Below, one piece after another: positions 28,830-58,948 of a stretch of 64,000 nucleotides of DNA. The notes beneath the pieces are model-generated. The model saw only the letters and a program-made list of their open reading frames with translations. It was not told where the DNA came from and did no database searches. Position 1 is the first letter of the stretch; the number at the start of each line of letters is the position of its first letter. Source of the stretch: a phage. The translations under genes and the position numbers were made by a program. The stretch lies in the sequence record NC_135728.1; one strand, given 5' to 3'.

Positions 28830-28862
28830 GTCACTCCTCCGGTATGAAAATCTCTACAAGGT

Positions 28863-28891
28863 ATTTTACCAAATTTTGTAACAATAGTCAA
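28863..28891 (-). promoter_or_regulatory. sigma70-like promoter with extended -10 (TTGACT-N14-TGGTAAAATA)
   Basis: Hexamers with 17-bp spacer between the upstream terminator and the GTG start at 28829. Confidence 0.5.
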
Positions 28892-28898
28892 TCTGAGC

Positions 28899-28926
28899 AT
28901 AAAAATAAACCCCGCCGAAGCGGGGC
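28899..28926 (-). terminator. intrinsic terminator, CCCCGC-UUCG-GCGGGG hairpin plus UUUAUUUUU
   Basis: Same hairpin core as the 2487-2517 terminator; follows the J-like gene. Confidence 0.65.
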
Positions 28927-28934
28927 TTTAAAGG

Positions 28935-31900
28935 TTAGTCGTGAGACTCGTTCCAAGGTCCTTGGAAACTAGAGTTAGAACGGCTTACCACAACAGTAGG
29001 ACAGGATATTGCGACCCCTGTTACAGAAGACGTTGACCATGGTGTGTAGATTTCAACAACAATATCTATGGTTTGTTCACCAAGACCTGTTATCCCTACC
29101 GCACACATGCCGTTGTTGTCGTTTCCGTACTTCTTACCTGCAAGGATTTGATGTCCGGCTATCCAAACGTTGAGCTGGGAGCTGGCAAGAGTACCATTCA
29201 GTTTAAAGAAGAATGTTACGTTCTTACCCTGACCTGAAACGTTATCTACATATCTCCACCTCCAACGGCAAACCCTTTGCTGGGAGTTATATACTGGAGC
29301 ACAATCCCCGTAAGTCCTGTGTGCAACTATTGCACCTTCGAACTGGTTAGCACGGATAACAGAAGCTTCTACACGACCACGGAATGTACCTCCGGTTGCA
29401 TCTATGGTGCCTCTAAAGCTACCATTATTGGCATAAACATCCCCACGGAAGGTACCACTAGTGGCGTTAACTGCCCCTGTGAAGTTACCAGAACTGGCGT
29501 TGATGTTGCCTTTCACCCACACATCCATAAATTGGGCGTGCCCGTTCTTGTTAATATACCAACCGTATTGATGGTACCCGTTACCATCGTAGTTGTTTGA
29601 CGAAATTTCTTGTGCGATCTTGGCAGAGGAGATCGTGCCATTCTCTATAAAAGCGTCTTTCAAGAACGCTTGGTTGTTCTTGATTGCGAAAGCAAGGGTT
29701 GCTGTTCCATTTCCAGGGTTGTATACCGCAAAATTGTTTGCACTAACCATGAAGTAGGATTGAACTTGTCCTCCAGACCCCTCCATGCCCAGCTGGATAC
29801 CTGCAACATATTTATTACCATGGCTGTCAACCTGAATCTTAGCTCCCCACTGAGCATCTATTTTACCCTCAAGTGTTGTTACAGCTTTAGAGGTATTAGA
29901 TACTGTAGCCCTGAGCTCATCAATATTACCCATTTCGTCAACAATTTCTTGTTTTGCAGAGGTAAGTTCTTGACGGATCGCTGTGGCTGTATTATTAACA
30001 AGATCAACTGTTGTACTATTAGTTTCTTGAATAGATGCTTGCAGATTGGCAACCTCTTTCTGCACATCATCTTCCAGCTTGGTGATCTTCCCTGTAGCTG
30101 CCACCAGATCCTGCTTAATAGCTTCCGTTGTCTTATTTAGCAGATCGGTTGTTGCCTTGTTGGTTTCTTGAATAGAGGAGTTAAGTTTGCTCTCAGTGTT
30201 CTTCAACTCTTCCCGCAGAGTACCTTGAGTTGCAGTTATTTGCTCACTCAATGCTTGAGTTTTACGATTAACAAGATCAACGGTTGATCTATTTGTTGTC
30301 TCGATTAGTGACCCAAGCCTACCAGACTCTGCTGCAAGTTTATCGTCAAAGGATTGCTGAGCTGCTACCAGCTTACTGTTAAGGGCAGAAATTTCTCCAT
30401 TAACCCCTGTAAATTTTTCTGTCGTCTCTCTGACAACACCCTCTATTGTATCCCCAAGCTCTTCAAAAATGCTAGTAACACGGTCATTGACTGCACCAAC
30501 ATTTTTATCCATTTCCTTGACTGCATTATCAAGATTGGCGGTAAGCTCTTTATAAGTCTCTGTCTTTTTGAACTCAGCATCAATCTGTGGCATAAGATCT
30601 TCTATGGATGTGTAACAGTGGGCTGCACACTCCATAAAAGCAGATGAACCAAAAGCATTTGTTGTCCTGATATACCAGTAATAAATCTTATCGTTCTGCA
30701 GACCTTCAGATGTCCAAGTTGAACCAACACCCATACGAGTGGCTTTTGAAGTAACTGTTACATCACTGGTATCTGGCAATCTTGTCATCCCAGATGTCCA
30801 AAAGTCGTACTGGGTGCTTACACTAGCCAAGTCTCTGCTGTGCGGGATCAGGGTAATAGCAAAGTATCCCTGCTTAACCTCTACAGAAACAGGAGCTTCA
30901 GGTGCCTGAATGTTGAACTCGCAGTACGCTTCTGGAGATACACCACCTTTATAAGATGTTGCAACCACGGTTGCTGTGTATGATCCTTTGGTCAAGCCTT
31001 CTACTCGGACAAACTGCTCAACTGTCTGTGCTGTCCAAACAATCTCTCCGTTCTTTCTTACCTGCACAATATTTTGAGCGTAAGTTCCAACGTTGTCCCA
31101 AGCCAAAACACCGTGAGTTACTTCCCCGGCTTGGAGAACGGAATATCTGAAGTTTTGCGGTTGAGCTACACCAGATGGAGATATCGGAATATCTACATCA
31201 CCAGAATCCGGAAGTTGCCCTGTGGCATCATTCCACTCTTTAGCATCTTGACGAAGTTTTACCTTGACACCGCCCTTTTTGGTGAACTCCCATTCAAGAA
31301 CCCTCATTTCTTGGCCTACTATACCAATACTTGGAAGGTCCATTGTAACGTAACGGCCAGGTTTAAATTTAAAACCTCGCATATTGCAGGTGACTTCAAT
31401 AATCCTGCCAGCTCTAGCACGTCTTAAGAAGATTGCAGAAACACGCTGAGCTTGATAAGGACTGGTAACAAAGCGATAGTCTATATCAATTATCTTTCTT
31501 TCTCCATCCTTCTCTATCCACTCTGGGACAAACACTGATGGAAAATCTGTTTCAGAATACCCTTTGGTCGGACTAGTGAATCTGCCAGTTATTGTGTTGG
31601 ATCTCTTGTCAAAGGAGGCTTCCGGATAGATCTTGACCTCACCACAGACACAATCCTCACTCAGTGTCATTGTTGCTGGGCCATAGTATGCACCAACCAG
31701 CAAACCATACTTACCAGCAACATAACTAAGGTCTGCACCGCAAGCTTTCAGCATTTCTGCCATAATACTTGCTGGGGCCTCATCCATGTCAAACTCACCG
31801 TTAATGGTGTAACGTCGCTCACTGGTTCCGTCAGCGTTTTTTACCGCCTCGTCGCATATATTGGCAGCCTCCCTAAAGGACTCCCAGTTGATGGTTTCGT

Positions 31901-32534
31901 CAGGACATTTAAGGTACGTTCTTAAATAGTCCAGGATCACCAAGGCTGCGTTATTGGTGTACACCTCTTTACTGATGCGAGGATCATAGCATTTTTTACC
32001 AACCTTGACGAGTGTAACGTTTGGCAACCCAAAAGGAAACTTGTTAGGGTCAAACTTGAAACTGGCACGTAGCCAACTGATCCCTCTACCTATCATGTCG
32101 GGTGACCATGATGGGCAGTGTGTACCCATGAAAGGATCAGATGTTTTTCTGTCGTTATGTAGCTCCCACGATACCAGATCTCCATACGAGGAAATAGGAT
32201 TACCGTCGATGAGTATGTCTTCTATACCTTCCAGAGGATGATTAGCAAGAACAATGGCACAATGGAGGGTTCTGTCTCTGTCCTGCTCCAAAAACGCAAG
32301 CAGCCCAGACGTGCGTGTCTTCCCATACACTACAGAGCAGGGTGCAGCAGAAGATCTGAGAAGCTTTTGTCTATCTTGCTGACTTCTGTAAGATTTGTTG
32401 CCCTCAAAAATCTTATCCAGAGTTCTGGTGGTAACAGTGTTCAGGCTGTCAGCCAGAGCTGCCTTGGATGCGTTCCAGTCATAACTTGAAGATCTTGCAG
32501 AAGCAACGATGTTATCAATCATTGCAATTGGCAT
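28935..32534 (-). CDS. central tail fibre/host-specificity protein, lambda J-like (1199 aa)
   Basis: Architecture and local sequence reminiscent of lambda gpJ (e.g. KIYYWYIRTTNAFGSSAFME versus lambda DYYFYIRSVNTVGKSAFVE, recalled from memory); coiled-coil repeats; C-terminal receptor region. Confidence 0.65.
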   Translation of the reverse strand: MPIAMIDNIVASARSSSYDWNASKAALADSLNTVTTRTLDKIFEGNKSYRSQQDRQKLLRSSAAPCSVVYGKTRTSGLLAFLEQDRDRTLHCAIVLANHPLEGIEDILIDGNPISSYGDLVSWELHNDRKTSDPFMGTHCPSWSPDMIGRGISWLRASFKFDPNKFPFGLPNVTLVKVGKKCYDPRISKEVYTNNAALVILDYLRTYLKCPDETINWESFREAANICDEAVKNADGTSERRYTINGEFDMDEAPASIMAEMLKACGADLSYVAGKYGLLVGAYYGPATMTLSEDCVCGEVKIYPEASFDKRSNTITGRFTSPTKGYSETDFPSVFVPEWIEKDGERKIIDIDYRFVTSPYQAQRVSAIFLRRARAGRIIEVTCNMRGFKFKPGRYVTMDLPSIGIVGQEMRVLEWEFTKKGGVKVKLRQDAKEWNDATGQLPDSGDVDIPISPSGVAQPQNFRYSVLQAGEVTHGVLAWDNVGTYAQNIVQVRKNGEIVWTAQTVEQFVRVEGLTKGSYTATVVATSYKGGVSPEAYCEFNIQAPEAPVSVEVKQGYFAITLIPHSRDLASVSTQYDFWTSGMTRLPDTSDVTVTSKATRMGVGSTWTSEGLQNDKIYYWYIRTTNAFGSSAFMECAAHCYTSIEDLMPQIDAEFKKTETYKELTANLDNAVKEMDKNVGAVNDRVTSIFEELGDTIEGVVRETTEKFTGVNGEISALNSKLVAAQQSFDDKLAAESGRLGSLIETTNRSTVDLVNRKTQALSEQITATQGTLREELKNTESKLNSSIQETNKATTDLLNKTTEAIKQDLVAATGKITKLEDDVQKEVANLQASIQETNSTTVDLVNNTATAIRQELTSAKQEIVDEMGNIDELRATVSNTSKAVTTLEGKIDAQWGAKIQVDSHGNKYVAGIQLGMEGSGGQVQSYFMVSANNFAVYNPGNGTATLAFAIKNNQAFLKDAFIENGTISSAKIAQEISSNNYDGNGYHQYGWYINKNGHAQFMDVWVKGNINASSGNFTGAVNATSGTFRGDVYANNGSFRGTIDATGGTFRGRVEASVIRANQFEGAIVAHRTYGDCAPVYNSQQRVCRWRWRYVDNVSGQGKNVTFFFKLNGTLASSQLNVWIAGHQILAGKKYGNDNNGMCAVGITGLGEQTIDIVVEIYTPWSTSSVTGVAISCPTVVVSRSNSSFQGPWNESHD

Positions 32535-32971
32535 TAATACCTCCAGACATCAACAACGATAGAATCTTTCATGTCGAACATAAAGACCCCTTTATCACCT
32601 TTCGCCCAAATCTGGTTGTTCCAGAACACACCAGCGGTGAGCCCGTTCAGACCTTCGAAAATGACAATATCTCCACGCTGAACCTGTTTAGGAGTATCCA
32701 GCCGAGTCATAAAGAGATCAAAAATAGTAGGCAGGTGTGTGGTTTTGAAACGGAGCATGCACCATCTTTTGCTTTCCAACTCTGTTTTATACGTTCCTTC
32801 GAAGTTAGAAAGAAAATCTGTTCCGTACTGGGCATCAACACACTTAGCTGCAAAGGTGCAACAATCGTGGAATCCCCATTCAAAAGGTATGGTGGCCTCT
32901 TCGTCAAACACTTTCCACAATCTTTCTTGCCAATCCACTAAACGAGGGTGTGTGCTCATTAAACCTCCCAA
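32534..32971 (-). CDS. tail-associated protein, possible NlpC/P60-like peptidase (145 aa)
   Basis: HDCCTF Cys-containing motif; position immediately upstream of the J-like gene as for lambda gpK. Confidence 0.4.
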   Translation of the reverse strand: MGGLMSTHPRLVDWQERLWKVFDEEATIPFEWGFHDCCTFAAKCVDAQYGTDFLSNFEGTYKTELESKRWCMLRFKTTHLPTIFDLFMTRLDTPKQVQRGDIVIFEGLNGLTAGVFWNNQIWAKGDKGVFMFDMKDSIVVDVWRY

Positions 32972-33525
32972 ATGATCGGGCGGCTCGCCACCTGATCCAC
33001 ATATTTAAAAAATCTGTCATTATCGTTTCTTGAGCTGTGGCTTTCCTCCGTGTACCTATAAGGAAAACCTCTTAACCAACTGTTGAAGATGGAAGAGATG
33101 GATATGGACAAAGCACTATTCTCACCTGTCTGAATAGCCATATCTGTTATAAGGCCGTCAAACAAGCCATTAGTTGTAACAGGCAGACCATTCTCCATAG
33201 CGGTAATGTACAACGTGGCACGACAACCAGAATACTCCGTCTTCAGCAGATCACCAACATACTTAGGATCAAACCCGTTCAATGTTGCTACCACAGATCC
33301 GAAGTTGGTGGCATCTTTCTCAGACACAGCAGTTAATGTTGCTGATCCACCTATCCCTATAAAATGTTGCCCCTCAATTACTACAACACCAGTGCCTGAG
33401 CACACCCTGACAGTTCCTGTCGGTAGCTCCAGCTTTGCAGCAATTAAGATCTCAACACCATCAAGCTCCAGCTTTTCAAGAAATAAATTATCTAATGGCG
33501 CTCTGATCATCTTAGAAATCCTCAA
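32959..33525 (-). CDS. minor tail protein (188 aa)
   Basis: Overlapping start/stop with neighbours; positional call. Confidence 0.4.
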   Translation of the reverse strand: MRISKMIRAPLDNLFLEKLELDGVEILIAAKLELPTGTVRVCSGTGVVVIEGQHFIGIGGSATLTAVSEKDATNFGSVVATLNGFDPKYVGDLLKTEYSGCRATLYITAMENGLPVTTNGLFDGLITDMAIQTGENSALSISISSIFNSWLRGFPYRYTEESHSSRNDNDRFFKYVDQVASRPIIWEV

Positions 33526-34102
33526 AGAAGTTGATAACTATATTATCACCTTTTTGCATAGCATCGACTTTTTGCTTAATTTTATAAATATCTCTGATAT
33601 GAAACCTACCCTTTGGGGATTGAGTTATTATCTTCATAGTATCCCCTGCGGCAATAGGTTTCCTAAGTCTTGGAGATATGCTTATAACAGCAGCCCCAAC
33701 ACCATCGCTGCGTACTGGAGCTGTTACTACTTTCAACTCATCGTTCACAGATATTTTATCACCAGCTCTGGCTATGTCTCTGTTTGGCTCCCACCCGACC
33801 GTCTTCAAAAAATCGTCGTTACCAGTAGGCCCAAGAGCGATTGGCTCATTAGCTGTTACCGAGTGACCGTAAGTTTTAATGAGAAATATGTTCCCATCTT
33901 TATATACCTGATCAACAAAGCTCTTAAGCTCTAACAACTGTGACTCGCTGATATTGGAAACCGTCAAAGTGCCTTTCCAGTTAGGTGTGGCATAGGTTAC
34001 TTTTTGCGTTTTACCTGTAAACGGACTTTTAAACGTAACAATATCTGCTAGCAGCTCCAATCTAATATCTGGAAGGTATCTAGGCCTTTCCCATAAAAAC
34101 AT
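33512..34102 (-). CDS. minor tail protein (196 aa)
   Basis: Positional call. Confidence 0.4.
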   Translation of the reverse strand: MFLWERPRYLPDIRLELLADIVTFKSPFTGKTQKVTYATPNWKGTLTVSNISESQLLELKSFVDQVYKDGNIFLIKTYGHSVTANEPIALGPTGNDDFLKTVGWEPNRDIARAGDKISVNDELKVVTAPVRSDGVGAAVISISPRLRKPIAAGDTMKIITQSPKGRFHIRDIYKIKQKVDAMQKGDNIVINFFEDF

Positions 34103-34133
34103 TGTGCCTCCAGGTTAAACAATCATGATAGTT

Positions 34134-34162
34134 ATTTTACCAGATTTTAAGTTAATACGCAA
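34134..34162 (-). promoter_or_regulatory. sigma70-like promoter with extended -10 (TTGCGT-N14-TGGTAAAATA)
   Basis: Shares the TGGTAAAATA motif; sits between a terminator and the gene start at 34102. Confidence 0.45.
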
Positions 34163-34165
34163 TAT

Positions 34166-34194
34166 AAACAAAAAGCCCCCGCCGAAGCGAGGGC
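34166..34194 (-). terminator. intrinsic terminator, GCCCUCGC-UUCG-GCGGGGGC hairpin plus U-run
   Basis: Third copy of the UUCG-tetraloop terminator motif. Confidence 0.55.
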
Positions 34195-34199
34195 AATAC

Positions 34200-34532
34200 T
34201 TAAAATACTTCCAAGGTAGACGCTGGAGGGTCGAACATGTTCAATTTCATCGACTCTACAACTTTTCCGCTTTTTGAGATAATGTTTTCTGCACCTTCGT
34301 CCAGAGTTAAAACATTAACATAAAACAATTCGCTTTTCTCACAAACAGGATAGACAACCATGTTGCCAAACTCATCTTCTGCCTCATAGGTATCTCCCGT
34401 CTCTGTGTAAACAAAGCCAGCAACCTCTACAAGAAGTGTGTTTTGCAACACCTCATTTTCGTAAAAGCCGATTTCATCCATGAAACCGTTGAAGTCCTCC
34501 CTGTCAGTGAACCCGAGGGTAAAGGTATTCAT
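34200..34532 (-). CDS. hypothetical protein (110 aa)
   Basis: ATGA-coupled to the 1479-aa gene. Confidence 0.45.
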   Translation of the reverse strand: MNTFTLGFTDREDFNGFMDEIGFYENEVLQNTLLVEVAGFVYTETGDTYEAEDEFGNMVVYPVCEKSELFYVNVLTLDEGAENIISKSGKVVESMKLNMFDPPASTLEVF

Positions 34533-37500
34533 TATTCAACACTCTCCATCATAAGTTGGGTATCTGTCAGCGCAGAGTTCCAAACTCTTATGTCCTTAAT
34601 ATGACCAAACAAATGTCTTTCTCCTGTTGCCGTTTGACCACCGATACGGATGAAAGCTCCTCCTGCCAGGAACTCCCAAGAAGACTGTGTTTCAGTGCTC
34701 ACCAGTCCGTTAGCAAAAGAGCAAGTTTTACCGTCTTCTTTTATCCTGAACCCCATCTTCAGTTTACGCGCTTTAGCCATCTCGTAGACACGTCTGTTTG
34801 ACCCTCCAATATCGCAGTATGGATACCCATCCTCTGCAATATTTGTTGCAGAACCAAACCCGAGAATAAAAGCTGCGCTCGTCTGGTGTCCTTCTGTGTC
34901 TATAACCCTAGGGGCTGCGTTAGGAGCTTTGCCCCAACCTCTCCAGTTAGCATCCACAGTAGCGGCGATAGTGAACGGTCTAGGTGCTAAGTTATCCGTC
35001 ATCGGGAATTTGCAAAGGTCTGCCGCTCTAGTTACAGGTGAAGATCCTGTGGGAATAAACGAGGACTCGCAAGAACCTAACTCAAATTGAGGTATTGCAA
35101 CATCAACCCAATCCCCTACAACATGCTGAGCACCTTCAGGTGGAGAAATCTGGAACTGGCACCCGATATTCTTGTCAGAGGCCACTGCCTCAAACGTAGC
35201 GGCAATCCTTACCCAAGCAGGTCCGGCTGTTTGCCATCTCTCAGCTTTTACTTTAATTCTCCCAGCTGCACCACCTGTTGTTTTAACTTCAAGTGTTGAC
35301 AGGTTAACATAAGCGTCACCTTGGAATACTGTGGTGGATCCGTCATACATGTCGAATCTTACACGTAATCTCTGGTTCGCTTTACCTCCCCTTGCAATAA
35401 TAGACCCAGTACAGAATTTCTCAGCACCTGTCACATCGGCACCTCTGGTGGCTGGAACTGTAGCAAGGTTTAACGCTGTTGTTTCCACACCGGATGCAGT
35501 GTTTACTGTAAATCTTGCACCTTTTGTGCCGTTGGTGTTTGTTACAGTACCACCAACAGTAATCTGTTGACTGGCTCCCCATTTACTAGGGTCTTCACTG
35601 TTAAGCATTAGGTTTGTCCTTTGCCCTTCAATAAGCAGACCATCTCTTTCAAACCGAGGATGATCGTTCTGAGCAGTAACCATCACACCGCGTTTAGAAA
35701 AGTATGTTGCTGTAGAAGGTCTGGAGAATACCATCTCTCCCTCACCAAGTGCAGGTTTTAAGTTGGAGGTCAAAGGTAACCAAAGATCAGGCATAACTGG
35801 GGCGGTTGTGCTTTCCGGGAAGCTTGTTCTCTTCCAAGGACTCCAAGCCATTCCACTACCAGTGTTATTATAATACCTTTCCCATGTTCCACCAAGGTAC
35901 ATCTTGTAGATCTGAATACAGCCCGTGCCCTCGTTAGCAGAGTTTCTAAGCACAATCAGCGTACCAGCCATCTGCTGTCCAGGCGGGTAATGTCTTTCAG
36001 CTGTAGCGTTAGCATTCGCCTCTTGATGGTAGATACCTTCACGATCTGCTTTATAATCGTTAAGGTCGCTATTCCCCAGTCCTTGACCACGGTGCTGAAT
36101 AACCTTGTTCCACGCTCTGTGATTTCCCTGCTCTATGGAACGGGTATATAGCTGATCTAATCGACCTGCTATCTGGAAAGCATAGTTCCCAGAGAATGCC
36201 ACAGACAACCCGCCAACAACCATCGAACCTTCAGGCCCGTTAACATTACCAGCCATTATTTTAGAAGGGTTGTTATTCCCGAACTGGTTGTTCCAGTCTG
36301 CACCTGTGTGGCATACAAAACCACCAGGAGCTGAGAAAGTGCCATCTTTGTTGAAGTTGTAGAATCTATGGGATGAACCAACAACATCTCTAACAATGAC
36401 CTGACCAGCCTCTGGGGTAGACCTGAACTCTGCCTGACCTTTGAGACCAGCACCATTACCGCATTTAGAGGTAAATGTACCGTTAGTTAAGTCCTCTGTC
36501 CCATCTGATGCACACTGGAATCCTGCATTAGAGAATAAAGCCTTTCTAGGGCTGCCGTAGCACAAATAGTCAAGACCGTCTGCCCATAGCTCGACTTTTG
36601 GCATATTCATTTTGCTCATCACAGCATAGCGTTCAGCAGTGCCTATATAGTGCCACTGTGTACCGCCGCCAGTGTAGAATCCAGAGGTACCTTTGAAGTC
36701 AACAATAGGTCTGGTGTTGGTATTGTTATCTCCAAGAACAGCAAGATTCAAATCTGCCGACTGGAGAGGTGCAACAAACTTAACCCCGTCCTGATTGTTT
36801 GTTACAGAACCAACCTGGTAGTCTTGTTCTTTGGTAAACACCTCTAAAACATTTCTACTTGCGTATATGCTGACAGGGAAAGCACGCGCCTCTGCATAGA
36901 AAGCAACATATTCTTGTTTACCCCTTGTTGGAGCAACCATCCCAAGAATTGCTTTTTCATTCTGGTAGAAATTTACTACTCCGTAGAAAGAGTCCCCTCT
37001 ATCTGTCCACCCACCAGTTCTATAATGACACTGTAAGGTAGCACAGTTCATGGGGTCACCACCAGATGACGACCTAGTAACTATGGTAATATCGGTGCCA
37101 GTAGCTGGAGCATAATACGGATCTGTTCTAACTATAATTGGGTAGTATTTCCCATCTTCCATCCCTGCGGTTCTTGGCAGCGTTAAGAAATCTTTTACGC
37201 CTGCAGCTATAGGAACTCTAAACAGATTCTGAGCCTCTGCCAAAGTTGTAGCCCCAGTACCACCTGCGGCTTGCGGTAAAGGTTCCCACTTGGCCTTCCG
37301 GTTGTTATAAACACCCCATTCCAGAGTGCCGTTACCGGATTCATCCATCCCGCCATCCCAGATGACCATCTTGGCGGCTTTCTTGGATCCCCAGAAGCCT
37401 CTTTCTGCTCCTGAACTACGGATCCACTCTCCGAGTCCCCAGTTTGTCAGCTGACCAGTAAGATCCCCAACCTGCATGTATTTAGGGCAGTCTAGCACGC

Positions 37501-38971: not shown

Positions 38972-39006
38972 TCTTTCTCCTGAAAGGGGGCAAACAGCCC
39001 CCTATG

Positions 39007-41604: not shown

Positions 41605-41605
41605 C

Positions 41606-42274: not shown

Positions 42275-42283
42275 GATTTCTCC

Positions 42284-43000: not shown

Positions 43001-43012
43001 GAAAGCCCTCTA

Positions 43013-44694: not shown

Positions 44695-45074
44695 TATTCT
44701 AACCCTTGCTGTTCCTTGTAAAGATCAACCGGGGTGCCGTATACAAGCTGTAGCTCAGATCTCGCCCCAAGGTTATATCTTCCAACCCTGCCCCAATATT
44801 GATCGTCTTTAAACGACAGCGCCATCAGTCTACCTTTCGGTAAATCATCTCTGTAATGCAGTCCGTCTAAAATATCTTGACAAGCTGTTACTTTTCTGGT
44901 TACTAAAGGGCTGTCACCTACTGGACCAAGAGATAACCACCAGGACTCATCCCTCTCATTCCATTGCATACGCATTTCATACGTTTCATTGTCTAAAACA
45001 ACACGCATGGTTTGATCAGGAAAGCCATCAATGTCCCACACAAAAGTGATTACACACCAATCTTTAAGCTCCAT
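44694..45074 (-). CDS. tail protein (126 aa)
   Basis: ATGA-coupled. Confidence 0.4.
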   Translation of the reverse strand: MELKDWCVITFVWDIDGFPDQTMRVVLDNETYEMRMQWNERDESWWLSLGPVGDSPLVTRKVTACQDILDGLHYRDDLPKGRLMALSFKDDQYWGRVGRYNLGARSELQLVYGTPVDLYKEQQGLE

Positions 45075-45085
45075 TGCTGTTCCCC

Positions 45086-45997
45086 TTATTTTCCGTTAAC
45101 TTTGTCGTAGTTTCCCTGCTCTGACGGAACTATAGTGGAAGGTCTTCCATATTCCTGATAGTACCAATCGGCAGCGGACTGGGTAACACCGTTTTCATCT
45201 GTCCACATCATAGACTTGTATGGCTGCCACTCTTCTGCAGCATTTGTGGATGCAGTGTCTGCAAATGCCCCTGTATCTCTCTTGTTACCTACATTACTAC
45301 CATTCTTACAATCGTTGACAGCACCTTTTTGCTGGGTCTTCCCAACTTTTTTAGGATTGCTGTACACTGTTGCATTAACAACTTTGTTCAAGTAAAATGT
45401 GCGGAATTCTGTAAGTTCTACATCAAACACCATTGCAGCTCCTTCACCAACAGACTTGTTGGCAGAAAGGCTGGTTATGATATAGTTCTCAAGGAGTCTC
45501 TCCTCGGTAACCAAGGAAACCAACTGTCGCTTATTGATAATCTCAGTCAAAGCCTCCAATGCAGCTCCTGGTCTCATAGATGCTGCAGGGTTTTTAGAGT
45601 CAGTATTCCTATCAATGTAGTTTTGCTCATAAATTATATGTGGGGATGTATTTACCCTGCCAGTAAAAGAAAATACACCATCTTTAATTACAGCGTGGTC
45701 TGACATGGTAGATTTATCTTCCACTGCAAAACCAGTTTTATCAACAGAATGTTTGAAAGAATAGTTCTCAACCTGGTCGAAGATAATGGCAAGATCGTTA
45801 GTAAAGTTTTTACCCTTCATCTCCGTATTGCGACCACCATAGTTAAGACCGCTGACAAACATAGTGTACTTTACATCACCTTCAGTTTGCTGCTCAGCCT
45901 TTTCAGCCTTTGGAGACTTAACCTCTTGAGGCTTGTACAGATCTTTTTCATCAACTATATTATTTGGCATAACCTCTCCAGGACACTCCGATACCAT
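45086..45997 (-). CDS. tail protein (303 aa)
   Basis: Immediately downstream of the tape measure gene; an alternative start with GGAGAGG RBS lies near 45970. Confidence 0.45.
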   Translation of the reverse strand: MVSECPGEVMPNNIVDEKDLYKPQEVKSPKAEKAEQQTEGDVKYTMFVSGLNYGGRNTEMKGKNFTNDLAIIFDQVENYSFKHSVDKTGFAVEDKSTMSDHAVIKDGVFSFTGRVNTSPHIIYEQNYIDRNTDSKNPAASMRPGAALEALTEIINKRQLVSLVTEERLLENYIITSLSANKSVGEGAAMVFDVELTEFRTFYLNKVVNATVYSNPKKVGKTQQKGAVNDCKNGSNVGNKRDTGAFADTASTNAAEEWQPYKSMMWTDENGVTQSAADWYYQEYGRPSTIVPSEQGNYDKVNGK

Positions 45998-46037
45998 TTA
46001 GATATTGTATCATAAAATAGCTGTTTTTACAACACCG

Positions 46038-46066
46038 ATAAAAATAAAGGGGGCCGGAGCCCCCCC
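46038..46066 (-). terminator. intrinsic terminator after the tape measure gene
   Basis: GGGGGC-loop-GCCCCC hairpin followed by UUUAUUUUUAU. Confidence 0.5.
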
Positions 46067-46074
46067 GCAGTTTA

Positions 46075-48414
46075 TTACCAAAGATCTGTTGACATAAAGT
46101 TAATATCTTTGCTATTCTCCCACTCAAGTTTTGCATCAAGTATTTTGCTAAACTCACCTTCATCTATAGAAATGGTGATTTTACCATCGCTGATCTCCAA
46201 AGGTAACATTTCCATGGTTCTCAGTTGAGAGGCAAAACCAGGGCCACCAGGTAGCGGAAGGGTTCCACCAGGTAAAGTGTCTAGAGGATTAACAAACCCG
46301 TTGCCACCCGATACTATATCTTTGCGGATCATGTCACTAATAGTATCCAGCTGTTGATTTCTCTCACTGAAAGGGTTGAAACGATCATTAACCATAGCCC
46401 CAGCACTCAATAATGTCCCAAGTATCCCCAACTTACCTAACATACCGGTACCTTTGATGCCTGGTGCTTTTATTCCACCACCTTTTCCTGCTGCGCCACC
46501 TACAGAACCCCCTGTGGTGATGGCACCAGCGCCAGCAGCTCCAGCTGCACCTTTCAGGGTGCTAAGGAACTTAAAAGTTTTTACAAGCATGGATGCCATG
46601 ACAAACCCTTTTGTAAGAGCGTGCACTACCAGCATAATGGCAGCAGCATACCCTGCCCATTTGGCAGTGCTGAAGGTGTCATGCAGCTCTTCGGAATACT
46701 CCTTCGTCTTAGCTGTTATGAACCCCCATTTGATGCCCCACTCAAGGAAAAACAGGCGGATCTTAACTATAGTGTTGTTTAGCTCACCAACAACCCAGTT
46801 AAGGCCTCTAATAAATCCGCTAACAAAATCACCTGAGGCATCCCACACAAATTGCAGAGTCTCACCTGTGCGGATCAAGGTGTAGTAGAACTCTGTCAAT
46901 TCATCTGCCCAACGGGTGAACAGTTTCTGACGAGACAGTTCTATGAAGGTTTTCAGTCTGTTTTCTGCCAGTACGTTAGACTTCTGCATTCTTTCATAAC
47001 CAGCTGCAGATGCCTCGTTCATGTACTTAGCCACATACTTCATGATCTTAGCTGTTTTAACCTCACCTTTCTTCATCATATCCATGAACTGATCCATGGA
47101 GAGTTCAGAAAGACCAAAAGCCTCTTTGGTGGCCTTGATAAAAGGTTCGTATGCACCAGGTAATGCTTCAGCAAGTTGTTGCTTCAGTTCTTCGGACATT
47201 ACTTGTCCCTTGCCTAGCATCTGTTGGATTGCCATGATACCACGCTGGTATTTTACCTCATCGGCACCATAAGCAGCAGCATACTGGGAGTATGCAGAGA
47301 ACAGCTCATGAACCTCCTGATTTGTCATCTGGTTTTTGGCGTTTACCGCCATCTGGGCGTAACCTTGAAGACCAGATTTGAGATCAAAACCAAGACGCAT
47401 AGCCTCTTGCTGGACAAACGCAACCTCACTGTTGGCTTTGTTTGGATCTCCAGTAACAGCAGTAAGAGCAGCACTTGCACCCTCCATCATGTGACCGGAT
47501 CTGTTAACAGCAGTAAATCCAGAAAAAGCCGTATACGCAGCTGTTGCATTAATAACAGATCTACGTAAGTCTCTCATGGCATCGCCTAGTGTAAGCGTTT
47601 GGTTGGTGGCGCTTTTAAACCCAGACTGCAGCGCTGACAGGTGGGCGTTAAAGGTTGACTTCTTCATCTCCCCGCGAGCAAACCTGGACTCTAACTCTGA
47701 GTATCCTGGCAAGCTTCCACGGAATCCGGCCCCATACTTGGCAGAAAGTCTTATCGCGGAGTTGTAGAGGTGGGTTCTCCTTGCCTCACGATCCGACATA
47801 AGCTTATTATCCATACCAGCTTTACTGTCTCTTCTTAGCTGTCTATGATAACGATTCATAGCGGCTGTCTGAGCTTTCACAAGGTTAGGGTCGGAAGCCA
47901 CACCACCCATATTAGGGTTACCGGGGATATATTTGAAAGATTTGGCATTAGCCAAAACTCTTGCCTTAGGTGCCTTATAACCACCGTAAGACACTGGTGC
48001 AGATTTGGCAGCCTTTTTGGCCTCTTTAGCTTGCTGCTGGTAGAACTTACGCATCCTAGCCATTTCTGGATTTTTAGCGGTAAGATTACCTACAGCTTGT
48101 TTACGTCTCGCATTCTCCCTACGTTCTATTGCAGCCCTTACTGCAGCCTCTTTCTTGGCCTGTGCTACGCTCTCTCTGTGCAGTTTAGCATTTGCCTGAG
48201 ATTGCTGTCTGGCAACCCTCTGCATTGTCTGCTGGGTTTTAACAGCTACCGCCTGCCATCTACTCATGGGGTTGGCTGAGTTAAAATCCTCGCCCAGTTT
48301 CCTGAACTCCCTCCCAATACTGCGAATTTTCTCTACAGCTTTTTTGTAGGAGGAGTTCTCTATCTCAAAGCCAATCTTGTTGACTGTTGTGGCAACTATT
48401 TTGTTTGTAGCCAT
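46075..48414 (-). CDS. tail tape measure protein (779 aa)
   Basis: Long helical, Ala/Gln/Lys-rich protein with C-terminal Gly-rich hydrophobic segment (GAAGAAGAGAITTGGSVGGAAGKGGG); sits after the tail chaperones. Confidence 0.7.
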   Translation of the reverse strand: MATNKIVATTVNKIGFEIENSSYKKAVEKIRSIGREFRKLGEDFNSANPMSRWQAVAVKTQQTMQRVARQQSQANAKLHRESVAQAKKEAAVRAAIERRENARRKQAVGNLTAKNPEMARMRKFYQQQAKEAKKAAKSAPVSYGGYKAPKARVLANAKSFKYIPGNPNMGGVASDPNLVKAQTAAMNRYHRQLRRDSKAGMDNKLMSDREARRTHLYNSAIRLSAKYGAGFRGSLPGYSELESRFARGEMKKSTFNAHLSALQSGFKSATNQTLTLGDAMRDLRRSVINATAAYTAFSGFTAVNRSGHMMEGASAALTAVTGDPNKANSEVAFVQQEAMRLGFDLKSGLQGYAQMAVNAKNQMTNQEVHELFSAYSQYAAAYGADEVKYQRGIMAIQQMLGKGQVMSEELKQQLAEALPGAYEPFIKATKEAFGLSELSMDQFMDMMKKGEVKTAKIMKYVAKYMNEASAAGYERMQKSNVLAENRLKTFIELSRQKLFTRWADELTEFYYTLIRTGETLQFVWDASGDFVSGFIRGLNWVVGELNNTIVKIRLFFLEWGIKWGFITAKTKEYSEELHDTFSTAKWAGYAAAIMLVVHALTKGFVMASMLVKTFKFLSTLKGAAGAAGAGAITTGGSVGGAAGKGGGIKAPGIKGTGMLGKLGILGTLLSAGAMVNDRFNPFSERNQQLDTISDMIRKDIVSGGNGFVNPLDTLPGGTLPLPGGPGFASQLRTMEMLPLEISDGKITISIDEGEFSKILDAKLEWENSKDINFMSTDLW

Positions 48415-48468
48415 GGTTTCCTCATAATAAAAAGGGCCAGATCCCAGAAAAGGAATCCGGCCCTTAGA

Positions 48469-48717
48469 TTATCCTCTCCTGCGCTTAGCTTTCGCAGCAG
48501 CTGCGGCAGCCTTCTGCTCCCGCTCCATTTCCCTGTTTTGGACGGTATCTAGGAATTCTTCGATATCAAGATACTCACAGAGCTTCAGGAAATACGCCAT
48601 ATCTGCAAGATTTAGCGATTCAAAATTTTCCCCTTTGAAATTCTTGAGCACTCTGCACCAAAGAAAGTCGAACCAGTTGAGTGAACTGTTCTTGGCTGCC
48701 CACTCACTGGCCCTCAC
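48469..48717 (-). CDS. tail assembly chaperone, -1 frame extension ORF (T part of G-T)
   Basis: Lies in the -1 frame relative to 48729-49202 and is open back to the slippery site; GTG is only the first in-frame start in the track. Confidence 0.45.
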   Translation of the reverse strand: MRASEWAAKNSSLNWFDFLWCRVLKNFKGENFESLNLADMAYFLKLCEYLDIEEFLDTVQNREMEREQKAAAAAAKAKRRRG

Positions 48718-48728
48718 AACAACCTTGC

Positions 48729-49202
48729 TTATTCCTGCTCTTCCGGAGTCTGATCCAGGTTGTTCACCTGCTGAATCATACCCATCTGCTGTAACATCTC
48801 CAGAAGGCTTCCTAAACCGTCTTGTGTGAAAAAACAGCCGTAGTTAACCTCCAGAACCTTACCTGCCAGCTTAATCATCTCCAGCAGATGCCCTGCAAAC
48901 ACAACATCTGGGTTAAGCTTATCCACACCATCTACGGTAATATCTTCGAACAAGATTTTAAATAACTCTTCAATAGAGCTATCATCAAGTTCTTGGAACA
49001 GGTAAGCCAGGGCAGTAGGAAGGACCTCTGCCATATTCTGACCGCCTGAGATAATAGATCCACCGATAGCACCTAGCGGAACAGCCACAATCTTACCGAT
49101 TTTAGGCATGTTTTTCATTGCTTTCATCGGTCCCCAGTGGGTGATCACAAAGTTGTGCCCTGCTAAATCAATCTCTGTTGTAGGTCTAAAGTTTATAGCC
49201 AT
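48729..49202 (-). CDS. tail assembly chaperone (G-like, 157 aa)
   Basis: Position between tube-like and tape measure genes; contains the heptamer T_TTT_TTC about 35 codons before its stop. Confidence 0.55.
   Translation of the reverse strand: MAINFRPTTEIDLAGHNFVITHWGPMKAMKNMPKIGKIVAVPLGAIGGSIISGGQNMAEVLPTALAYLFQELDDSSIEELFKILFEDITVDGVDKLNPDVVFAGHLLEMIKLAGKVLEVNYGCFFTQDGLGSLLEMLQQMGMIQQVNNLDQTPEEQE
48828..48834 (-). other. candidate -1 programmed ribosomal frameshift site (U_UUU_UUC)
   Basis: In-frame slippery heptamer in the chaperone ORF; the -1 frame is open from here through 48469. Confidence 0.45.
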
Positions 49203-49245
49203 TTTATAGCATCCTTATTAGTCATGTTGTGCACCATATTTGTGT

Positions 49246-49274
49246 ATTTTACCATGATTATGGTGCATTGTCAA
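49246..49274 (-). promoter_or_regulatory. sigma70-like promoter with extended -10 (TTGACA-N14-TGGTAAAATA)
   Basis: Consensus -35, 17-bp spacer and TGGTAAAATA, upstream of the chaperone and tape measure genes. Confidence 0.55.
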
Positions 49275-49310
49275 TTTAACCTTTCAAGCAATTCAAGAAC
49301 GTGTGTCAAA

Positions 49311-49347
49311 ACCATAAAAAGCAAAAAGCCCCACCCTAAGGTGAGGC
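49311..49347 (-). terminator. intrinsic terminator after the tube-like gene
   Basis: 8-bp GC-rich stem (GCCUCACC/GGUGGGGC) with 4-nt loop, then CUUUUUGCUUUUUAUGG. Confidence 0.6.
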
Positions 49348-49365
49348 TTATGCTAAAGTGTGCCC

Positions 49366-49839
49366 TTAGATAATACCTGCAAGACCTGCGAGGCCAGTGA
49401 GAGCACCAGTAATGTTATCACGGTTGAGCCATGCATCCAGAATACCGATATCCCAGTCCAGTTGACCTACTTCGGTTCCGTAAGTCAGGTCTGGTTGTTT
49501 CTGGATCCAACCGATTGTGGAAATACCAGGGCCCTGGCTACCTTCCAGCAGAACCGGGAAGAATACCAGGCCAGTAATCGATGCCTGTTTCTGCCAGTCA
49601 GAGAGGTAAGCGTTCCATACTGAAGTGTTCTGCAAAGACACAGTCATGACACCAGATTGGTTACGGGACAGAGCCGCAGACATTTCACCATCCACACCGA
49701 CGTGAGGATAAATGTTGTCTTCGTTTCTTGAAACAACAATCTTGGTGTCAGCAGCGAAGCCAGTGACACGCTGCTGCATCAGATACAGTTTGACCTTTTT
49801 AGGGTCATACGCATAAGGAGTTAAAATTTGAGTTTCCAT
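49366..49839 (-). CDS. tail tube protein (putative, 157 aa)
   Basis: Size and position between sheath-like and chaperone genes; no sequence motif verified. Confidence 0.4.
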   Translation of the reverse strand: METQILTPYAYDPKKVKLYLMQQRVTGFAADTKIVVSRNEDNIYPHVGVDGEMSAALSRNQSGVMTVSLQNTSVWNAYLSDWQKQASITGLVFFPVLLEGSQGPGISTIGWIQKQPDLTYGTEVGQLDWDIGILDAWLNRDNITGALTGLAGLAGII

Positions 49840-49849
49840 CTAGGCTTCC

Positions 49850-51226
49850 TTATTCAGTCATTGCAACAGCATTGGTGGATTTAGAACCAACTTTGTCCAG
49901 AAGGACGTTGATCCGGATACGAACGAAGTGCAGGGCGTTATTATACACCAGTTCTACTTTCACACCTTCCAGAACACGAGCAGCCAACTGATTGGTTGGG
50001 ATTTCTGCACGTTTAGGAACTGTGATGATCGGGTCGTAGAATACATTATTGTCTTCGTCGAAACCTGTCAGGATCGCACCATTCTTAATGCCAGTGTTGA
50101 TTGGGTTGTTCATCAGGACAGACTTGATAACCGGAAGATCATCATCAGACATCTTCATGCTCAGACCCATATTAGATCGGCGATGCATGTATCCAAACAT
50201 AGACTCTTCGGATCTGAATTTAATCCAGTGGGCGAAGCGGATAGCATCTGCATACTGACCAGAAGCACATTTACCTTCCCAGAAAGCACCAACACCGTTG
50301 ATTGTTCTGTAGAAGTTAATGTTGTTCTCCCAAATCGCCATGCGCTGGGTCAAGGTCAGGGATGGTGCAAGAACACCAGGCATCTGTTTTAAGTGTAAGC
50401 TGTCGCCGTAGGACGGATCGTTGGATGCCATAGCACCGATAATACCGCCCTCTGGGAAGTCTTTGTCGGCGCGAGGGTCGTACATACCAATACTGTCATA
50501 TTTTGCAGCTTTCAGTTTAGTGGCAATGTTGCTGTCTTTGCCAGTCACATCTTCTGCAGTAGAGTAGACATGCAGTTTGTAGTTAGCCTGAGCCCACTTA
50601 GCACATGCTTCAATATCTGTGTGGTCTTCATGGCACAAGAAGTACCAATTATCCTGCTCAGCGTTGATCTTGTCGATCACGGTAGAAGGTTTTTCACTAT
50701 TGGCAATGTTTTTGATCGTATAATTACCAGTATGATAACCAACAGTACAATCACCAGTGATGGTGATAACACCTTCGTCTGCCTGCACGGTGATACCGTC
50801 TAAGCTATCATCAGCCTCAATTTTTTCCTTCATTGCCTCTGCGATCTGAGTTGCCCCTGTTCCACCAGAGATAGGGACTATCAAGGCAGTATTGTAGTCA
50901 CCTTTTGCAATAGTCATTACGACATCGGTATCAGCTGCGGCAGCAATACCTTTAAAATCTACAGTGGTCTTTTCTTTGGCCTGTCTGCCGATCATAACGT
51001 ATTGTGGAGGGAATACACCACCAAAAGCTTTTGCTGCAAACTCATACGCTGCAGAGCCTTGTGCGAAACCATCTTCCACCATCTGATCCAGCTCCGCATA
51101 TACGCGAGCTCGCTCAGTAAAGTTATTGTGGATAGCGATGAACAGGGGAGTTTCGAAACCTACAGTGTCAATAGGCTGGGTTCCGAGGTTAACTGTAACA
51201 TCTACCACTTTATCTAAATATGGCAT
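49850..51226 (-). CDS. tail sheath protein (putative; alternatively major tail protein, 458 aa)
   Basis: Size, position after neck proteins, codon usage of a highly expressed gene; call is positional. Confidence 0.45.
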   Translation of the reverse strand: MPYLDKVVDVTVNLGTQPIDTVGFETPLFIAIHNNFTERARVYAELDQMVEDGFAQGSAAYEFAAKAFGGVFPPQYVMIGRQAKEKTTVDFKGIAAAADTDVVMTIAKGDYNTALIVPISGGTGATQIAEAMKEKIEADDSLDGITVQADEGVITITGDCTVGYHTGNYTIKNIANSEKPSTVIDKINAEQDNWYFLCHEDHTDIEACAKWAQANYKLHVYSTAEDVTGKDSNIATKLKAAKYDSIGMYDPRADKDFPEGGIIGAMASNDPSYGDSLHLKQMPGVLAPSLTLTQRMAIWENNINFYRTINGVGAFWEGKCASGQYADAIRFAHWIKFRSEESMFGYMHRRSNMGLSMKMSDDDLPVIKSVLMNNPINTGIKNGAILTGFDEDNNVFYDPIITVPKRAEIPTNQLAARVLEGVKVELVYNNALHFVRIRINVLLDKVGSKSTNAVAMTE

Positions 51227-51298
51227 TTGTTTCCTCTTAATATCTGTGCACGGATATCAAACACGCAGTGTAATCATTACACTACACAATTATAACGA

Positions 51299-51850
51299 TT
51301 ACTGACCACTGTCTGTAACCGCTTTACCAGAATTGGGTGAAGGGAAGTGTGTGGTTATTTCAGCCTTAATTCCCTGAAGATCCTCAAAAGCCCCAATGTC
51401 TGTTTCAACAAACCTTACGTTAAATGTCAGCATCACAGTGGCTCTATTTTCATACGTCTGCTTATTCAACGGCACTCTTTGAGGTGAGATTGTTGAATTG
51501 TTAGAGTAGGCAAAGCACGATCCCAGAGGGAAATACTTGTCATAAAACATTGGAAGGTTTATTGCTTGCAATACTCTGCTAAGTGCAGCATATGCCCTGC
51601 CACGATAAGCTGTTAATAGATAAGTAACAGTGTAGCTGTGGGTGACGTAAGCATTACCCTCCGCATCTTGAAATTCATTATCTTCCCAAGTGGTGGGATT
51701 GATCGCTAAGGTTTGTAAAAGTACAAACTCACCTTCCGGCTTCGGTATGGTAGAGCTTTCTGCCAGAACTACAGTTCTTCCTGTGGCAACCTTGACGAGC
51801 TTAGCAATGGTTGTTTCAAGATCAGAAAAAACTTTTTCGAAAGCTTCCAT
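51299..51850 (-). CDS. head-tail joining/tail completion protein (183 aa)
   Basis: Positional call. Confidence 0.4.
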   Translation of the reverse strand: MEAFEKVFSDLETTIAKLVKVATGRTVVLAESSTIPKPEGEFVLLQTLAINPTTWEDNEFQDAEGNAYVTHSYTVTYLLTAYRGRAYAALSRVLQAINLPMFYDKYFPLGSCFAYSNNSTISPQRVPLNKQTYENRATVMLTFNVRFVETDIGAFEDLQGIKAEITTHFPSPNSGKAVTDSGQ

Positions 51851-52275
51851 CAGTTCTCTCCTTCAGGCTCTTCTACCACAAAAAATCTATATCTCCCGCC
51901 GCCGGAGGTAACATATGCATCGCATTTTAAAACGGTAAACCATTTCAAGTCACCACGGATGTCAGGCAGCTGAATTTGGTCAGCCATTGCATATGTTCCT
52001 TCGTCCGGACTATACAACTTGGTTGAGGAGTAAACTGTAAAAGCCTCGTACTGTCTGTCACCTTCAGGGTTTATTTGAGAGGAGTAATCTTTAGCTGCCC
52101 TTCCTGTCAACGGCTGCACAACACACTCTAAGACATCAAACTCTTCATACTCAAGCTCTAACCCCTCGTTGACAAAAGGACCGCCAACTGTTTTGTTATA
52201 CACTCTGTGGCGACCTTTGAATGTTTTACGAGGTATTAGTCTGTTATTTCCTATCAGCTTATAACCTGCTGCCAC
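51850..52275 (-). CDS. head-tail connector protein (141 aa)
   Basis: ATGA-coupled; positional call. Confidence 0.4.
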   Translation of the reverse strand: MAAGYKLIGNNRLIPRKTFKGRHRVYNKTVGGPFVNEGLELEYEEFDVLECVVQPLTGRAAKDYSSQINPEGDRQYEAFTVYSSTKLYSPDEGTYAMADQIQLPDIRGDLKWFTVLKCDAYVTSGGGRYRFFVVEEPEGEN

Positions 52276-52290
52276 TCAACCCCCTTATTT

Positions 52291-52761
52291 TTACTGTCCG
52301 ATTTTAAAGGTTGCAGATTCAAGCAGCACATCGTAATGCCGCATAGCCTCGTTGAAGCCCTTTTCTTGTGCCCACTGCTCACTAACAGTAGGATTACTAA
52401 ACTGACCAGCCTCAATAACAAACTGGATAGCTTTGGCCCCTGTGTCCCCCATCTGCTTAAGAATAGCCTCTGCACTTGATCCTCTAGCCATAGCTCTCAA
52501 CAATTTTTCTGTCAAGGTCTGTAGTTGAGTGCTGTGAAATGCAAAGGCTGTCTCCATGAAATTGCGAACAGGCAGCCCGTTCCAACCGAAGTTGTGAATG
52601 GCTGCCAATGTTGCCATATTTAAGCCTGACGGGTGAGGTTCGTCATAAAAGCCGTAGGTTATTGTTTTACTTTCAAGTCTCACAAGTTCTTTGTAGAAGC
52701 TATCTAAACGCTTTAGGTTGAACCTTGTTTGACATTTAACCTTTAGCATTATATCCCTCAC
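52291..52761 (-). CDS. head-tail connector/neck protein (156 aa)
   Basis: GAGGGA RBS; positional call. Confidence 0.4.
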   Translation of the reverse strand: MRDIMLKVKCQTRFNLKRLDSFYKELVRLESKTITYGFYDEPHPSGLNMATLAAIHNFGWNGLPVRNFMETAFAFHSTQLQTLTEKLLRAMARGSSAEAILKQMGDTGAKAIQFVIEAGQFSNPTVSEQWAQEKGFNEAMRHYDVLLESATFKIGQ

Positions 52762-52767
52762 TAATGT

Positions 52768-52796
52768 ATTTTACCACAAAGATACATCAAAAGCAA
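52768..52796 (-). promoter_or_regulatory. sigma70-like promoter with extended -10 (TTGCTT-N14-TGGTAAAATA)
   Basis: Fourth copy of the TGGTAAAATA motif, upstream of the 52291-52761 gene. Confidence 0.45.
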
Positions 52797-57254: not shown

Positions 57255-57321
57255 CTTATTCCCCATGTGGATTATTTTATCACGCCAAAGGAGGTTTTGC
57301 AACCCCCTGTGTTGATAATTT

Positions 57322-58878: not shown

Positions 58879-58948
58879 AAGCTTTACCCCTCAAAACAGT
58901 ATAACAAAATAGCCCTCGTGTTAGAGGGCTAGTATCTCCGATTAATCT

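Follow-up and report, generated by a model that had tools for sequence, protein, structure and literature searches.

Eight intergenic sites in the structural module of a rV5-like phage share a short element, TTG followed after 17 nucleotides (nt) by TGnTAnAATA. We read these sites, with a probability of roughly 0.7, as sigma-70 'extended -10' promoters from which transcription of the structural gene cluster resumes behind terminators. The DNA analysed is a stretch of 64,000 nt (sequence record NC_135728.1; hereafter, the window). By its sequence, it is part of the genome of a Vequintavirus (rV5-like myophages of Escherichia coli, subfamily Vequintavirinae), from rIIA to the tRNA stretch. Four of the eight sites carry the identical 10-mer TGGTAAAATA and were the subject of an original prediction, made from the letters of the window, which described them as a recurrent promoter motif upstream of structural gene blocks. 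The TGGTAAAATA finding is a rediscovery of a motif and of sites published for rV5 in 2013 as putative late promoters. The four sites are real, but they make up half of a set of eight.

Eight copies of a promoter-like element between structural genes

The original prediction held that one 10-mer recurs at four minus-strand intergenic sites, each time 14 nt after a TTG-initiated hexamer, and this is what the counts returned. Within the 64 kb, TGGTAAAATA has exactly four copies, each intergenic and on the minus strand (28862-28871, 34133-34142, 49245-49254, and 52767-52776), against a mean of 0.17 in shuffled sequence, and none of 100 shuffles reached four. The hexamers 14 nt ahead of them are TTGACT, TTGCGT, TTGACA, and TTGCTT, respectively. 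The 29-nt spans originally assigned to the sites extended from the -35 hexamer as far as the T of TAAAAT, and the last A of the 10-mer lies one base below the start of each. An origin of the 10-mers by repetition or duplication was rejected, as the sites have unrelated spacers and flanks and no longer repeat has been copied.

The composite TTG-N17-TGnTAnAATA, of which the four TGGTAAAATA sites are a subset, came from searches allowing one mismatch and from inspection of all intergenic gaps in the late module. It matches the window eight times versus 0.06 expected, and all matches are on the minus strand, intergenic, and in the structural module. The intergenic DNA of the late module comprises 1,285 nt in 16 gaps; shuffling of these gaps gave an expectation of 0.054 for the 10-mer pattern TGnTAnAATA and 0.001 for the composite, compared with the eight observed. 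The plain pattern has four further matches in the window, all of them coding and none with the spaced TTG (0/4, versus 8/8 for the intergenic sites); the coding match at 25261 is accounted for by a conserved peptide, EPWWWYNT.

Each of the eight sites is followed 17-70 nt downstream by a start codon with a Shine-Dalgarno sequence, and site and gene are always co-oriented. A TG dinucleotide is present at -15/-14, one base ahead of the -10 hexamer, in all eight. The hexamer itself is TAAAAT in six sites, TACAAT in one, and TAGAAT in one, with T-12, A-11, and T-7 invariant. An A follows at -6 in 8/8 sites, G occupies -13 in 5/8, and three sites carry an upstream TRTG. All eight have TTGnnn at a 17-bp spacer, and just two have a full TTGAC[AT]. 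A scan with the sigma-70 consensus independently listed six of the sites (-35 hexamer matching at least four of six positions), among them P036, P051, P064, P063, and P048, each with the TG. Six of the eight stand directly behind a hairpin, and five of these hairpins have a clear T-run. The hairpins precede P036, P040, P051, P048, P030, and, in a weak form, P063; none was found at P056, and at P064 the order is inverted. Given the strand, the distance of 17-70 nt to the gene, the 17-bp spacing, the TG, and the T-run hairpins, it is very likely that the sites are promoters and that terminator-promoter modules subdivide the late region, as had been proposed.

The -10 block is conserved across genera of Vequintavirinae

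Orthologs of the window genes were placed by tblastn in five other Vequintavirinae genomes, i.e., CR3 (Certrevirus), EC152 (Seunavirus), K54lambda1.1.1 (Mydovirus), TH18, and LTH01. A complete (9/9) match to TGnTAAAATA was found upstream of the g56, g36, and g63 orthologs in 5/5 genomes each, and upstream of the g48 orthologs in two genomes, the other three having an 8/9 match (TGATAAAATC). An 8/9 variant is also present ahead of the large terminase gene (TerL). For all other orthologs the best upstream score was at most 7/9, or the match fell inside coding sequence. This ortholog-anchored scan replaced a crude intergenic k-mer enrichment, which was discarded as noisy, with TAAAATA ranked top solely in the window and in EC152.

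In an anchored comparison of the sites upstream of the g56, g36, g63, and g48 orthologs, the mean pairwise identity of the 10-mer was 0.85-1.00, versus 0.31-0.37 for the upstream flank, 0.42-0.67 for the spacer, and 0.35-0.60 for the downstream flank. The value of 0.60 is that of P063, where the ribosome-binding site and start codon fall within the flank; the other flanks range from 0.31 to 0.47. MAFFT independently recovered invariant blocks at P056, P063, and P048; it misaligned the P036 group, for which the anchored comparison was used instead. The block TGTGGTAAAATA and TTG.TTTTG at P056, and TTGCAAAA and TG.TAAAATAA at P063, are invariant in six genomes. The -35 element is kept at P056 (TTG[CA]TT) and P063 (TTGCAA), and at P036 and P048 it decays to TTTATA, TTTTAA, or TTTTTT in some genera. 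Of the 24 orthologous sites, 18 have TTG and the remainder TTT or a T-run. On these sequence comparisons, TGnTAAAATA is a phylogenetic footprint under purifying selection across Vequintavirinae genera.

The terminator-promoter pair after the tape-measure gene is kept across genera and is also present in the phi92-like phage ESCO9, of another subfamily (TTGACA-N14-TGATAAAATG). ESCO9 has TTGACA plus TGn promoters throughout, and no separate late class was found in it or in Pseudaeromonas phage KLEP7.

The deposited annotation of Klebsiella phage K54lambda1.1.1 (OY979426.1) is at odds with its sequence: where tblastn identifies the tail-sheath open reading frame (ORF), the record shows 'endonuclease VII' and other genes, on the other strand. 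Its features seem to have been shifted against the deposited letters.

Two contrasting sets of predicted promoters in the rV5 genome

A motif search over the complete genome had been suggested as a check of the original prediction, and it was run on rV5, whose 138-kb genome was put together from four sequence pieces and scanned on both strands. Perfect TGnTAAAATA occurs eight times, always in intergenic DNA (0 coding) and just upstream of a co-oriented gene. Six of the copies are in the late module and two elsewhere on the minus strand, at 110811 and 123670. These two are upstream of the small hypothetical genes ORF178 and ORF215, and the 110811 site is without any -35 element.

Promoter-like sites of the form TTGAC[AT]-N16-18-TAnnnT are distributed differently, with 67 matches genome-wide, 58 outside the late module, and two intergenic ones inside it (P036 and P051). 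Compared with the 58 TTGACW sites outside the late module, the eight late sites more often have TAAAAT (6/8 versus 2/58, p=8e-6), A at -6 (8/8 versus 15/58, p=9e-5), and TG (8/8 versus 19/58, p=4e-4), and none of the 58 has the full motif (0/58), though the tests are partly circular, as each set had been picked out by its own criterion, the late one by the motif and the other by TTGACW. The pattern still holds despite this circularity: outside the late module the -35 element is invariant and the -10 element variable, and inside it the reverse is the case. With 58 TTGACW promoters outside and eight weak -35 TGnTAnAATA promoters inside the late module, the rV5 genome has the arrangement looked for under a switch acting on sigma region 4. 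The two sets are assigned in time by the functions of their genes.

Relationship to the late promoters proposed for rV5 in 2013

Kropinski et al. 2013 (Virol J 10:76, PMC3606486) applied MEME to the upstream regions of rV5 late genes 27-66 and, from sequence only, published the motif 'TggTAaAAtA' as putative late promoters of rV5 (Table S4C). The eight MEME rows of that table are P036, P040, P051, P056, P030, P064, P048, and P055; the first four are the sites of the original prediction, identical to those in the window save for single flank differences. Tables S4A and S4D of the same paper list P036 and P051 as sigma-70 promoters, and terminators matching those found here. The authors reported rV5 to be without homologues of gp33, gp45, and gp55, remarked on a resemblance to the T4 late consensus, and suggested the Srd-like gp11 as a possible participant in an early-to-late switch. 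Elsewhere in GenBank, the record MT682716 carries PhagePromoter predictions at the orthologous sites, with ARNold terminators alongside.

The 2013 list and the present set describe the same element in genomes that are 95-99% identical, and they differ in three sites. The 2013 row for P048 aligned the -35 region of the site (TGTTGTAAAAAC) in place of its -10 region; TTGTAA-N14-TGATACAATA is the better reading. The composite does not accommodate P055 (TGGTAGAAGA), which is at a gene junction. P063 is missing from the rV5 list, and the rV5 annotation has g63 and the portal gene overlapping; its placement in a real 67-nt gap is indicated by a Shine-Dalgarno sequence and ATG at 57254 and by the cross-genus alignment. 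Other genera and the genome-wide exclusivity of the motif were outside the 2013 analysis. What is added here is a cleaner set of eight sites, the cross-genus footprint, the genome-wide exclusivity in rV5, and the contrast with TTGACA-type promoters.

Individual predicted promoters and terminators

All of the following features are on the minus strand, and P030, P036, P040, P051, P056, and P064 correspond to the rV5 sites of the same names. The original prediction placed three of its four sites behind intrinsic terminators, in agreement with the hairpins at 28928-28907, 34194-34175, and 49349-49326; P036, P040, and P051 are 12-52 nt downstream of them. P036 (28862-28891; TTGACT-N14-TGGTAAAATA) is ahead of the baseplate-J gene g36 (start 28829), and the terminator before it (28907-28928), a 9-bp GC-rich stem with a T-run, ends the g37 tail-fibre transcript 15 nt upstream of the -35 hexamer. 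P040 (34133-34162; TTGCGT-N14-TGGTAAAATA) precedes the distal tail protein gene g40 (start 34102), behind a terminator at 34175-34194 with an 8-bp stem (seven GC pairs) and the tail TTTTTGTTT (rV5 t041). P056 (52767-52796; TTGCTT-N14-TGGTAAAATA) is ahead of the neck/tail-completion gene g56 (ATG 52749) and is the one of the four without a preceding terminator.

P051 (49245-49274; TTGACA-N14-TGGTAAAATA), ahead of the tail assembly chaperone gene g51 (start 49202), has 11/12 consensus matches plus the TG and looks to be the strongest promoter of the set. Its terminator (49326-49349; rV5 t052) follows the tail-tube gene g52. At P051 alone among the sites, the 10-mer lies between the two arms of a perfect inverted repeat of 9 nt, TGCACCATA / TATGGTGCA (49230-49238 and 49259-49267; 20 nt apart). 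The repeat is identical in sequence in rV5 and Gotham and could be an operator or form a hairpin in read-through RNA.

Of the sites added to the original four, P030 (22531-22560; TTGCAT-N14-TGTTAAAATA) is ahead of the tail-fibre gene g30, and its -35 hexamer adjoins a hairpin at 22560-22581. P048 (46003-46032; TTGTAA-N14-TGATACAATA) is ahead of g48 (ATG 45970), behind a terminator at 46047-46066 that follows the tape-measure gene g49 (rV5 t049). P063 (57273-57302; TTGCAA-N14-TGATAAAATA) lies between the portal stop codon (57322-57324) and the ATG of g63, with its -35 hexamer inside a hairpin of -13 kcal/mol (57286-57311). P064 (58948-58977; TTGCCA-N14-TGGTAGAATA) lies between the TerL stop and the portal gene. 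Here the terminator (58910-58931; 8-bp stem, TATTTTGTT tail; rV5 t064ABC) is downstream, about 11 nt beyond the predicted transcription start, and, barring leakiness or suppression of termination, most P064 transcripts would be RNAs of about 40 nt. The pair could act as an attenuator or produce a small RNA ahead of the portal gene. This arrangement is absent in other genera, where the TerL-portal gap is 15-18 nt.

Host sigma-70 as the probable reader of the sites

Because all conserved bases occupy sigma-70 extended -10 positions and no alternative machinery was detectable, we infer that the eight sites are host sigma-70 extended -10 promoters, and the sigma-70 holoenzyme is the most likely reader. 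In the proposed layout, TG would be at -15/-14, TAAAAT at -12 to -7, and A at -6, with a partial -35 element (TTGnnn) 17 bp upstream. The host RNA polymerase holoenzyme would make contact mainly via sigma regions 2 and 3, and the TTG, which at 17-bp spacing would provide the most important -35 contacts, would add a modest contact with region 4. The promoters and hairpins would together divide the ~45-kb structural cluster into about eight units, i.e., portal; prohead/capsid; neck/sheath/tube; chaperones/tape measure; baseplate; distal tail/central fibre; baseplate J/fibres; and distal fibres. Transcription would partially stop after abundant products and restart for the next block, and the output of each block could thereby be set separately. 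We call the promoters late on account of the genes that they serve.

The closest known counterparts are the E. coli sigma-70 extended -10 (TGn) promoters (Mitchell et al. 2003, as cited in PMC3950348), which also have a TG one base ahead of the -10 element, T-12/A-11/T-7, and a weak or dispensable -35 element. The host promoters are far more variable, whereas the window sites have a near-fixed TAAAAT plus A, in a 10-mer kept across phage genera. A further likeness is seen in the strong sigma-70 promoters of T5. T5 promoters with a TTGC-type -35 element are transcribed by unmodified E. coli RNA polymerase. An annotated one (AY587007, 63118-63188), TTGCTT-N17-TATAAT-A, shares with the window sites the TTGC-type -35 element, the 17-bp spacing, and the A after the -10 hexamer, and with P056 the exact TTGCTT; it differs in having TATAAT without a correctly spaced TG and in not being a late promoter.

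[quoted passage not shown] By displacing sigma region 4, gp39 silences -10/-35 promoters and spares extended -10 promoters, and it also suppresses intrinsic termination; the same region 4 principle has been suggested for T4 AsiA. The likeness lies in the extended -10 late promoters, and the antitermination activity of gp39 is relevant to a late region rich in terminators. By analogy, it is plausible that late timing in the window phage works by displacement of sigma region 4, in which case a -10-centred architecture would keep the promoters active late if the phage weakens -35-dependent initiation. The window sites differ from these systems in keeping TTG at -35, and phmmer detected no AsiA homologue in rV5 or the window.

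Candidate factors were sought among the six-frame ORFs of rV5 and the window. T4 gp55, gp33, DsbA, and AsiA had no phmmer match at E<0.5; for gp55, gp33, and DsbA, searched with --max, the best E was 0.56, remote structural analogues being outside the reach of this search. A match to MotA (E=0.0012) was dismissed as spurious, since what aligns with the MotA linker is the C-terminal low-complexity stretch of structural ORF58. The RefSeq annotation of rV5 lists neither a sigma factor nor an RNA polymerase, and Rfam reported the TerL group I intron and tRNAs alone, with no family overlapping the motif sites. Among the PHROGs matched by gp11 (6787-7722), the first gene of the plus-strand early operon, are PHROG 4592 ('decoy of host sigma70', 2e-12) and PHROG 1400 ('Srd anti-sigma factor', 6e-10); the best is annotated as an HNH endonuclease family. 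Searches of Pfam and PDB returned nothing for gp11. In T4, Srd has since been linked to RNase E and not to sigma. On its PHROG matches, gp11 is the sole putative candidate for a timing factor. ORF158 belongs to PHROG-639 'transcriptional regulator', and Pfam and PDB searches gave no mechanistic lead for either protein.

Several points weigh against sigma-70 as the sole reader and against a strictly late class. A in place of T at -10, G at -13 (5/8), and A at -6 (8/8) are conserved beyond the known needs of sigma-70, and an additional specificity factor could be behind this. P051 and P036 come close to the sigma-70 consensus; going by their sequence, they should be active on naked DNA as soon as infection begins, which is awkward for a strict 'late' class. 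P064 reads straight into a terminator, and the contrast between the two promoter sets carries the circularity described above. In addition, a literature search returned no transcriptome, RNA sequencing, 5'-end mapping, or in vitro transcription study for any Vequintavirus, and a 2025 preprint still calls the subfamily poorly studied.

The extra conserved bases feed the rival that survives best, an unlikely one in our judgement, i.e., that TGnTAAAATA is a dedicated late class read only or mainly by host RNA polymerase that is modified or re-targeted by a Vequintavirinae factor. The factor might be gp11, which is Srd-like, or a sigma-like or sigma-appropriating protein that has escaped recognition, and the extra conserved bases would be its specificity determinants. 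The motif is indeed class-specific, missing from all 58 TTGACW promoters elsewhere in rV5, and conserved across genera where sigma-70 reads weakly (A-10, A-6, and often G-13), and in other genera several sites have just TTT or a T-run at -35. The position of gp11 at the head of the early operon and its sigma70-decoy and Srd matches agree with this, and a comparable switch was proposed by Kropinski et al. (PMC3606486). Set against it, all eight window sites retain TTG at 17 bp, TG, T-12, A-11, and T-7, which is the complete sigma-70 recognition set, and the T5 promoter has the same TTGC-type -35 element and A at -6. No sigma, gp55, gp33, AsiA, or MotA homologue was detectable in rV5 or the window, and the case for gp11 is reduced by its better match to HNH endonucleases and by the link of Srd to RNase E. 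The original prediction had allowed for a phage-specific promoter class reflecting conservation beyond the host consensus. A distinct class, conserved across genera and unlike TTGACA-type promoters, is what we found, but the part of the claim that implies non-host recognition found no support, as every conserved base suits a sigma-70 extended -10 promoter and no phage sigma, gp55, gp33, or AsiA homologue was detectable.

It is highly improbable that the motif is no promoter and instead binds a phage DNA-binding protein, signals RNA processing or translation, or simply reflects the AT-rich composition of intergenic DNA. In favour of such readings, the inverted repeat around P051 is a possible protein-binding site, and P064 is followed by a terminator. 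Composition is insufficient, however, given the 0.054 expected in shuffled intergenic DNA versus eight observed; the TTG at 17-bp spacing (8/8 intergenic, 0/4 coding) is promoter-specific geometry, site orientation always follows the downstream gene, and no Rfam family is present at the sites.

A T4-type late system, with a gp55-like late sigma, gp33 co-activator, and sliding clamp coupled to replication, was rejected and is effectively refuted: both kinds of site are short, AT-rich, -10-centred motifs ahead of structural genes, and TGGTAAAATA and the T4 late consensus TATAAATA have AAATA (-10 to -6) in common, the resemblance remarked on in PMC3606486, but the motifs differ at -13, -12, and -11, the window sites have the TG and spaced TTG that T4 late promoters lack, TATAAATA is at chance level in the window (four matches versus 2.4 expected) with none at the late intergenic sites, and neither the phmmer searches for gp55, gp33, DsbA, and AsiA nor the 2013 account of gp33, gp45, and gp55 found the proteins required.

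Other features of the window

In the window, rIIA and early genes extend to ~13.7 kb, the structural module (tail fibres, baseplate, tape measure, tube, sheath, neck, capsid, portal, and TerL) occupies ~13.7 to 61 kb on the minus strand, and a tRNA cluster lies beyond it. Gene order and coordinates parallel those of phage rV5 (NC_011041). The region from 44 to 60 kb is 98.7% identical to vB_EcoM-Pr121LW, and that from 28 to 36 kb is ~95-96% identical to FFH2, JLBYU08, and many others. A total of 18 GenBank records (MG0656xx) titled 'Campylobacter phage', with C. jejuni as host, are 95-96% identical to this E. coli Vequintavirus, and they are probably mislabelled or contaminant assemblies.

The large-terminase gene (58981-60847) is split by a group I intron at 60153-60457 on the minus strand (Rfam RF00028, 79 bits), with exon ORFs at about 60847-60419 and 60069-58981. 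Unlike in rV5, the intron has no HNH homing-endonuclease ORF; in TH18, TerL is annotated in three pieces together with an HNH gene. In the early region, four tandem small ORFs (87, 87, 87, and 77 aa) at 9232-10256 on the plus strand are diverged paralogues (37/87 residues identical between the first and second) and represent a local gene-family expansion. Within the tRNA cluster, ARAGORN predicted a 99-nt 'tRNA-???' with a four-base anticodon at 62196-62294 on the minus strand, with tRNA-Thr and tRNA-Ser on either side. The Rfam tRNA model did not report it, and it may be a degenerate or intron-containing tRNA.

Implications for rV5-like phages

In a broader and rather speculative view, which we consider doubtful, TGnTAAAATA would mark a late programme common to Vequintavirinae, in which a small phage protein cripples -35-dependent initiation or re-tunes the sigma-70 holoenzyme and -10-centred promoters take over. 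Candidates for such a protein may include the Srd-like gp11 and ORF158, with the invariant A-10 and A-6 read by the modified enzyme. If true, this would add a coliphage to the examples of the AsiA/gp39 principle, and one that works through another factor.

The rV5-like phages are widely isolated and are used in therapy and biocontrol cocktails, and little molecular work has been done on them. Correct mapping of promoters and terminators across the structural region would be useful for engineering (placement of payloads for late expression), for reading polar effects in transposon or CRISPR screens, and for finding the late-timing factor. Selection on the -10 block across genera makes the 'late class' hypothesis of 2013 directly testable.

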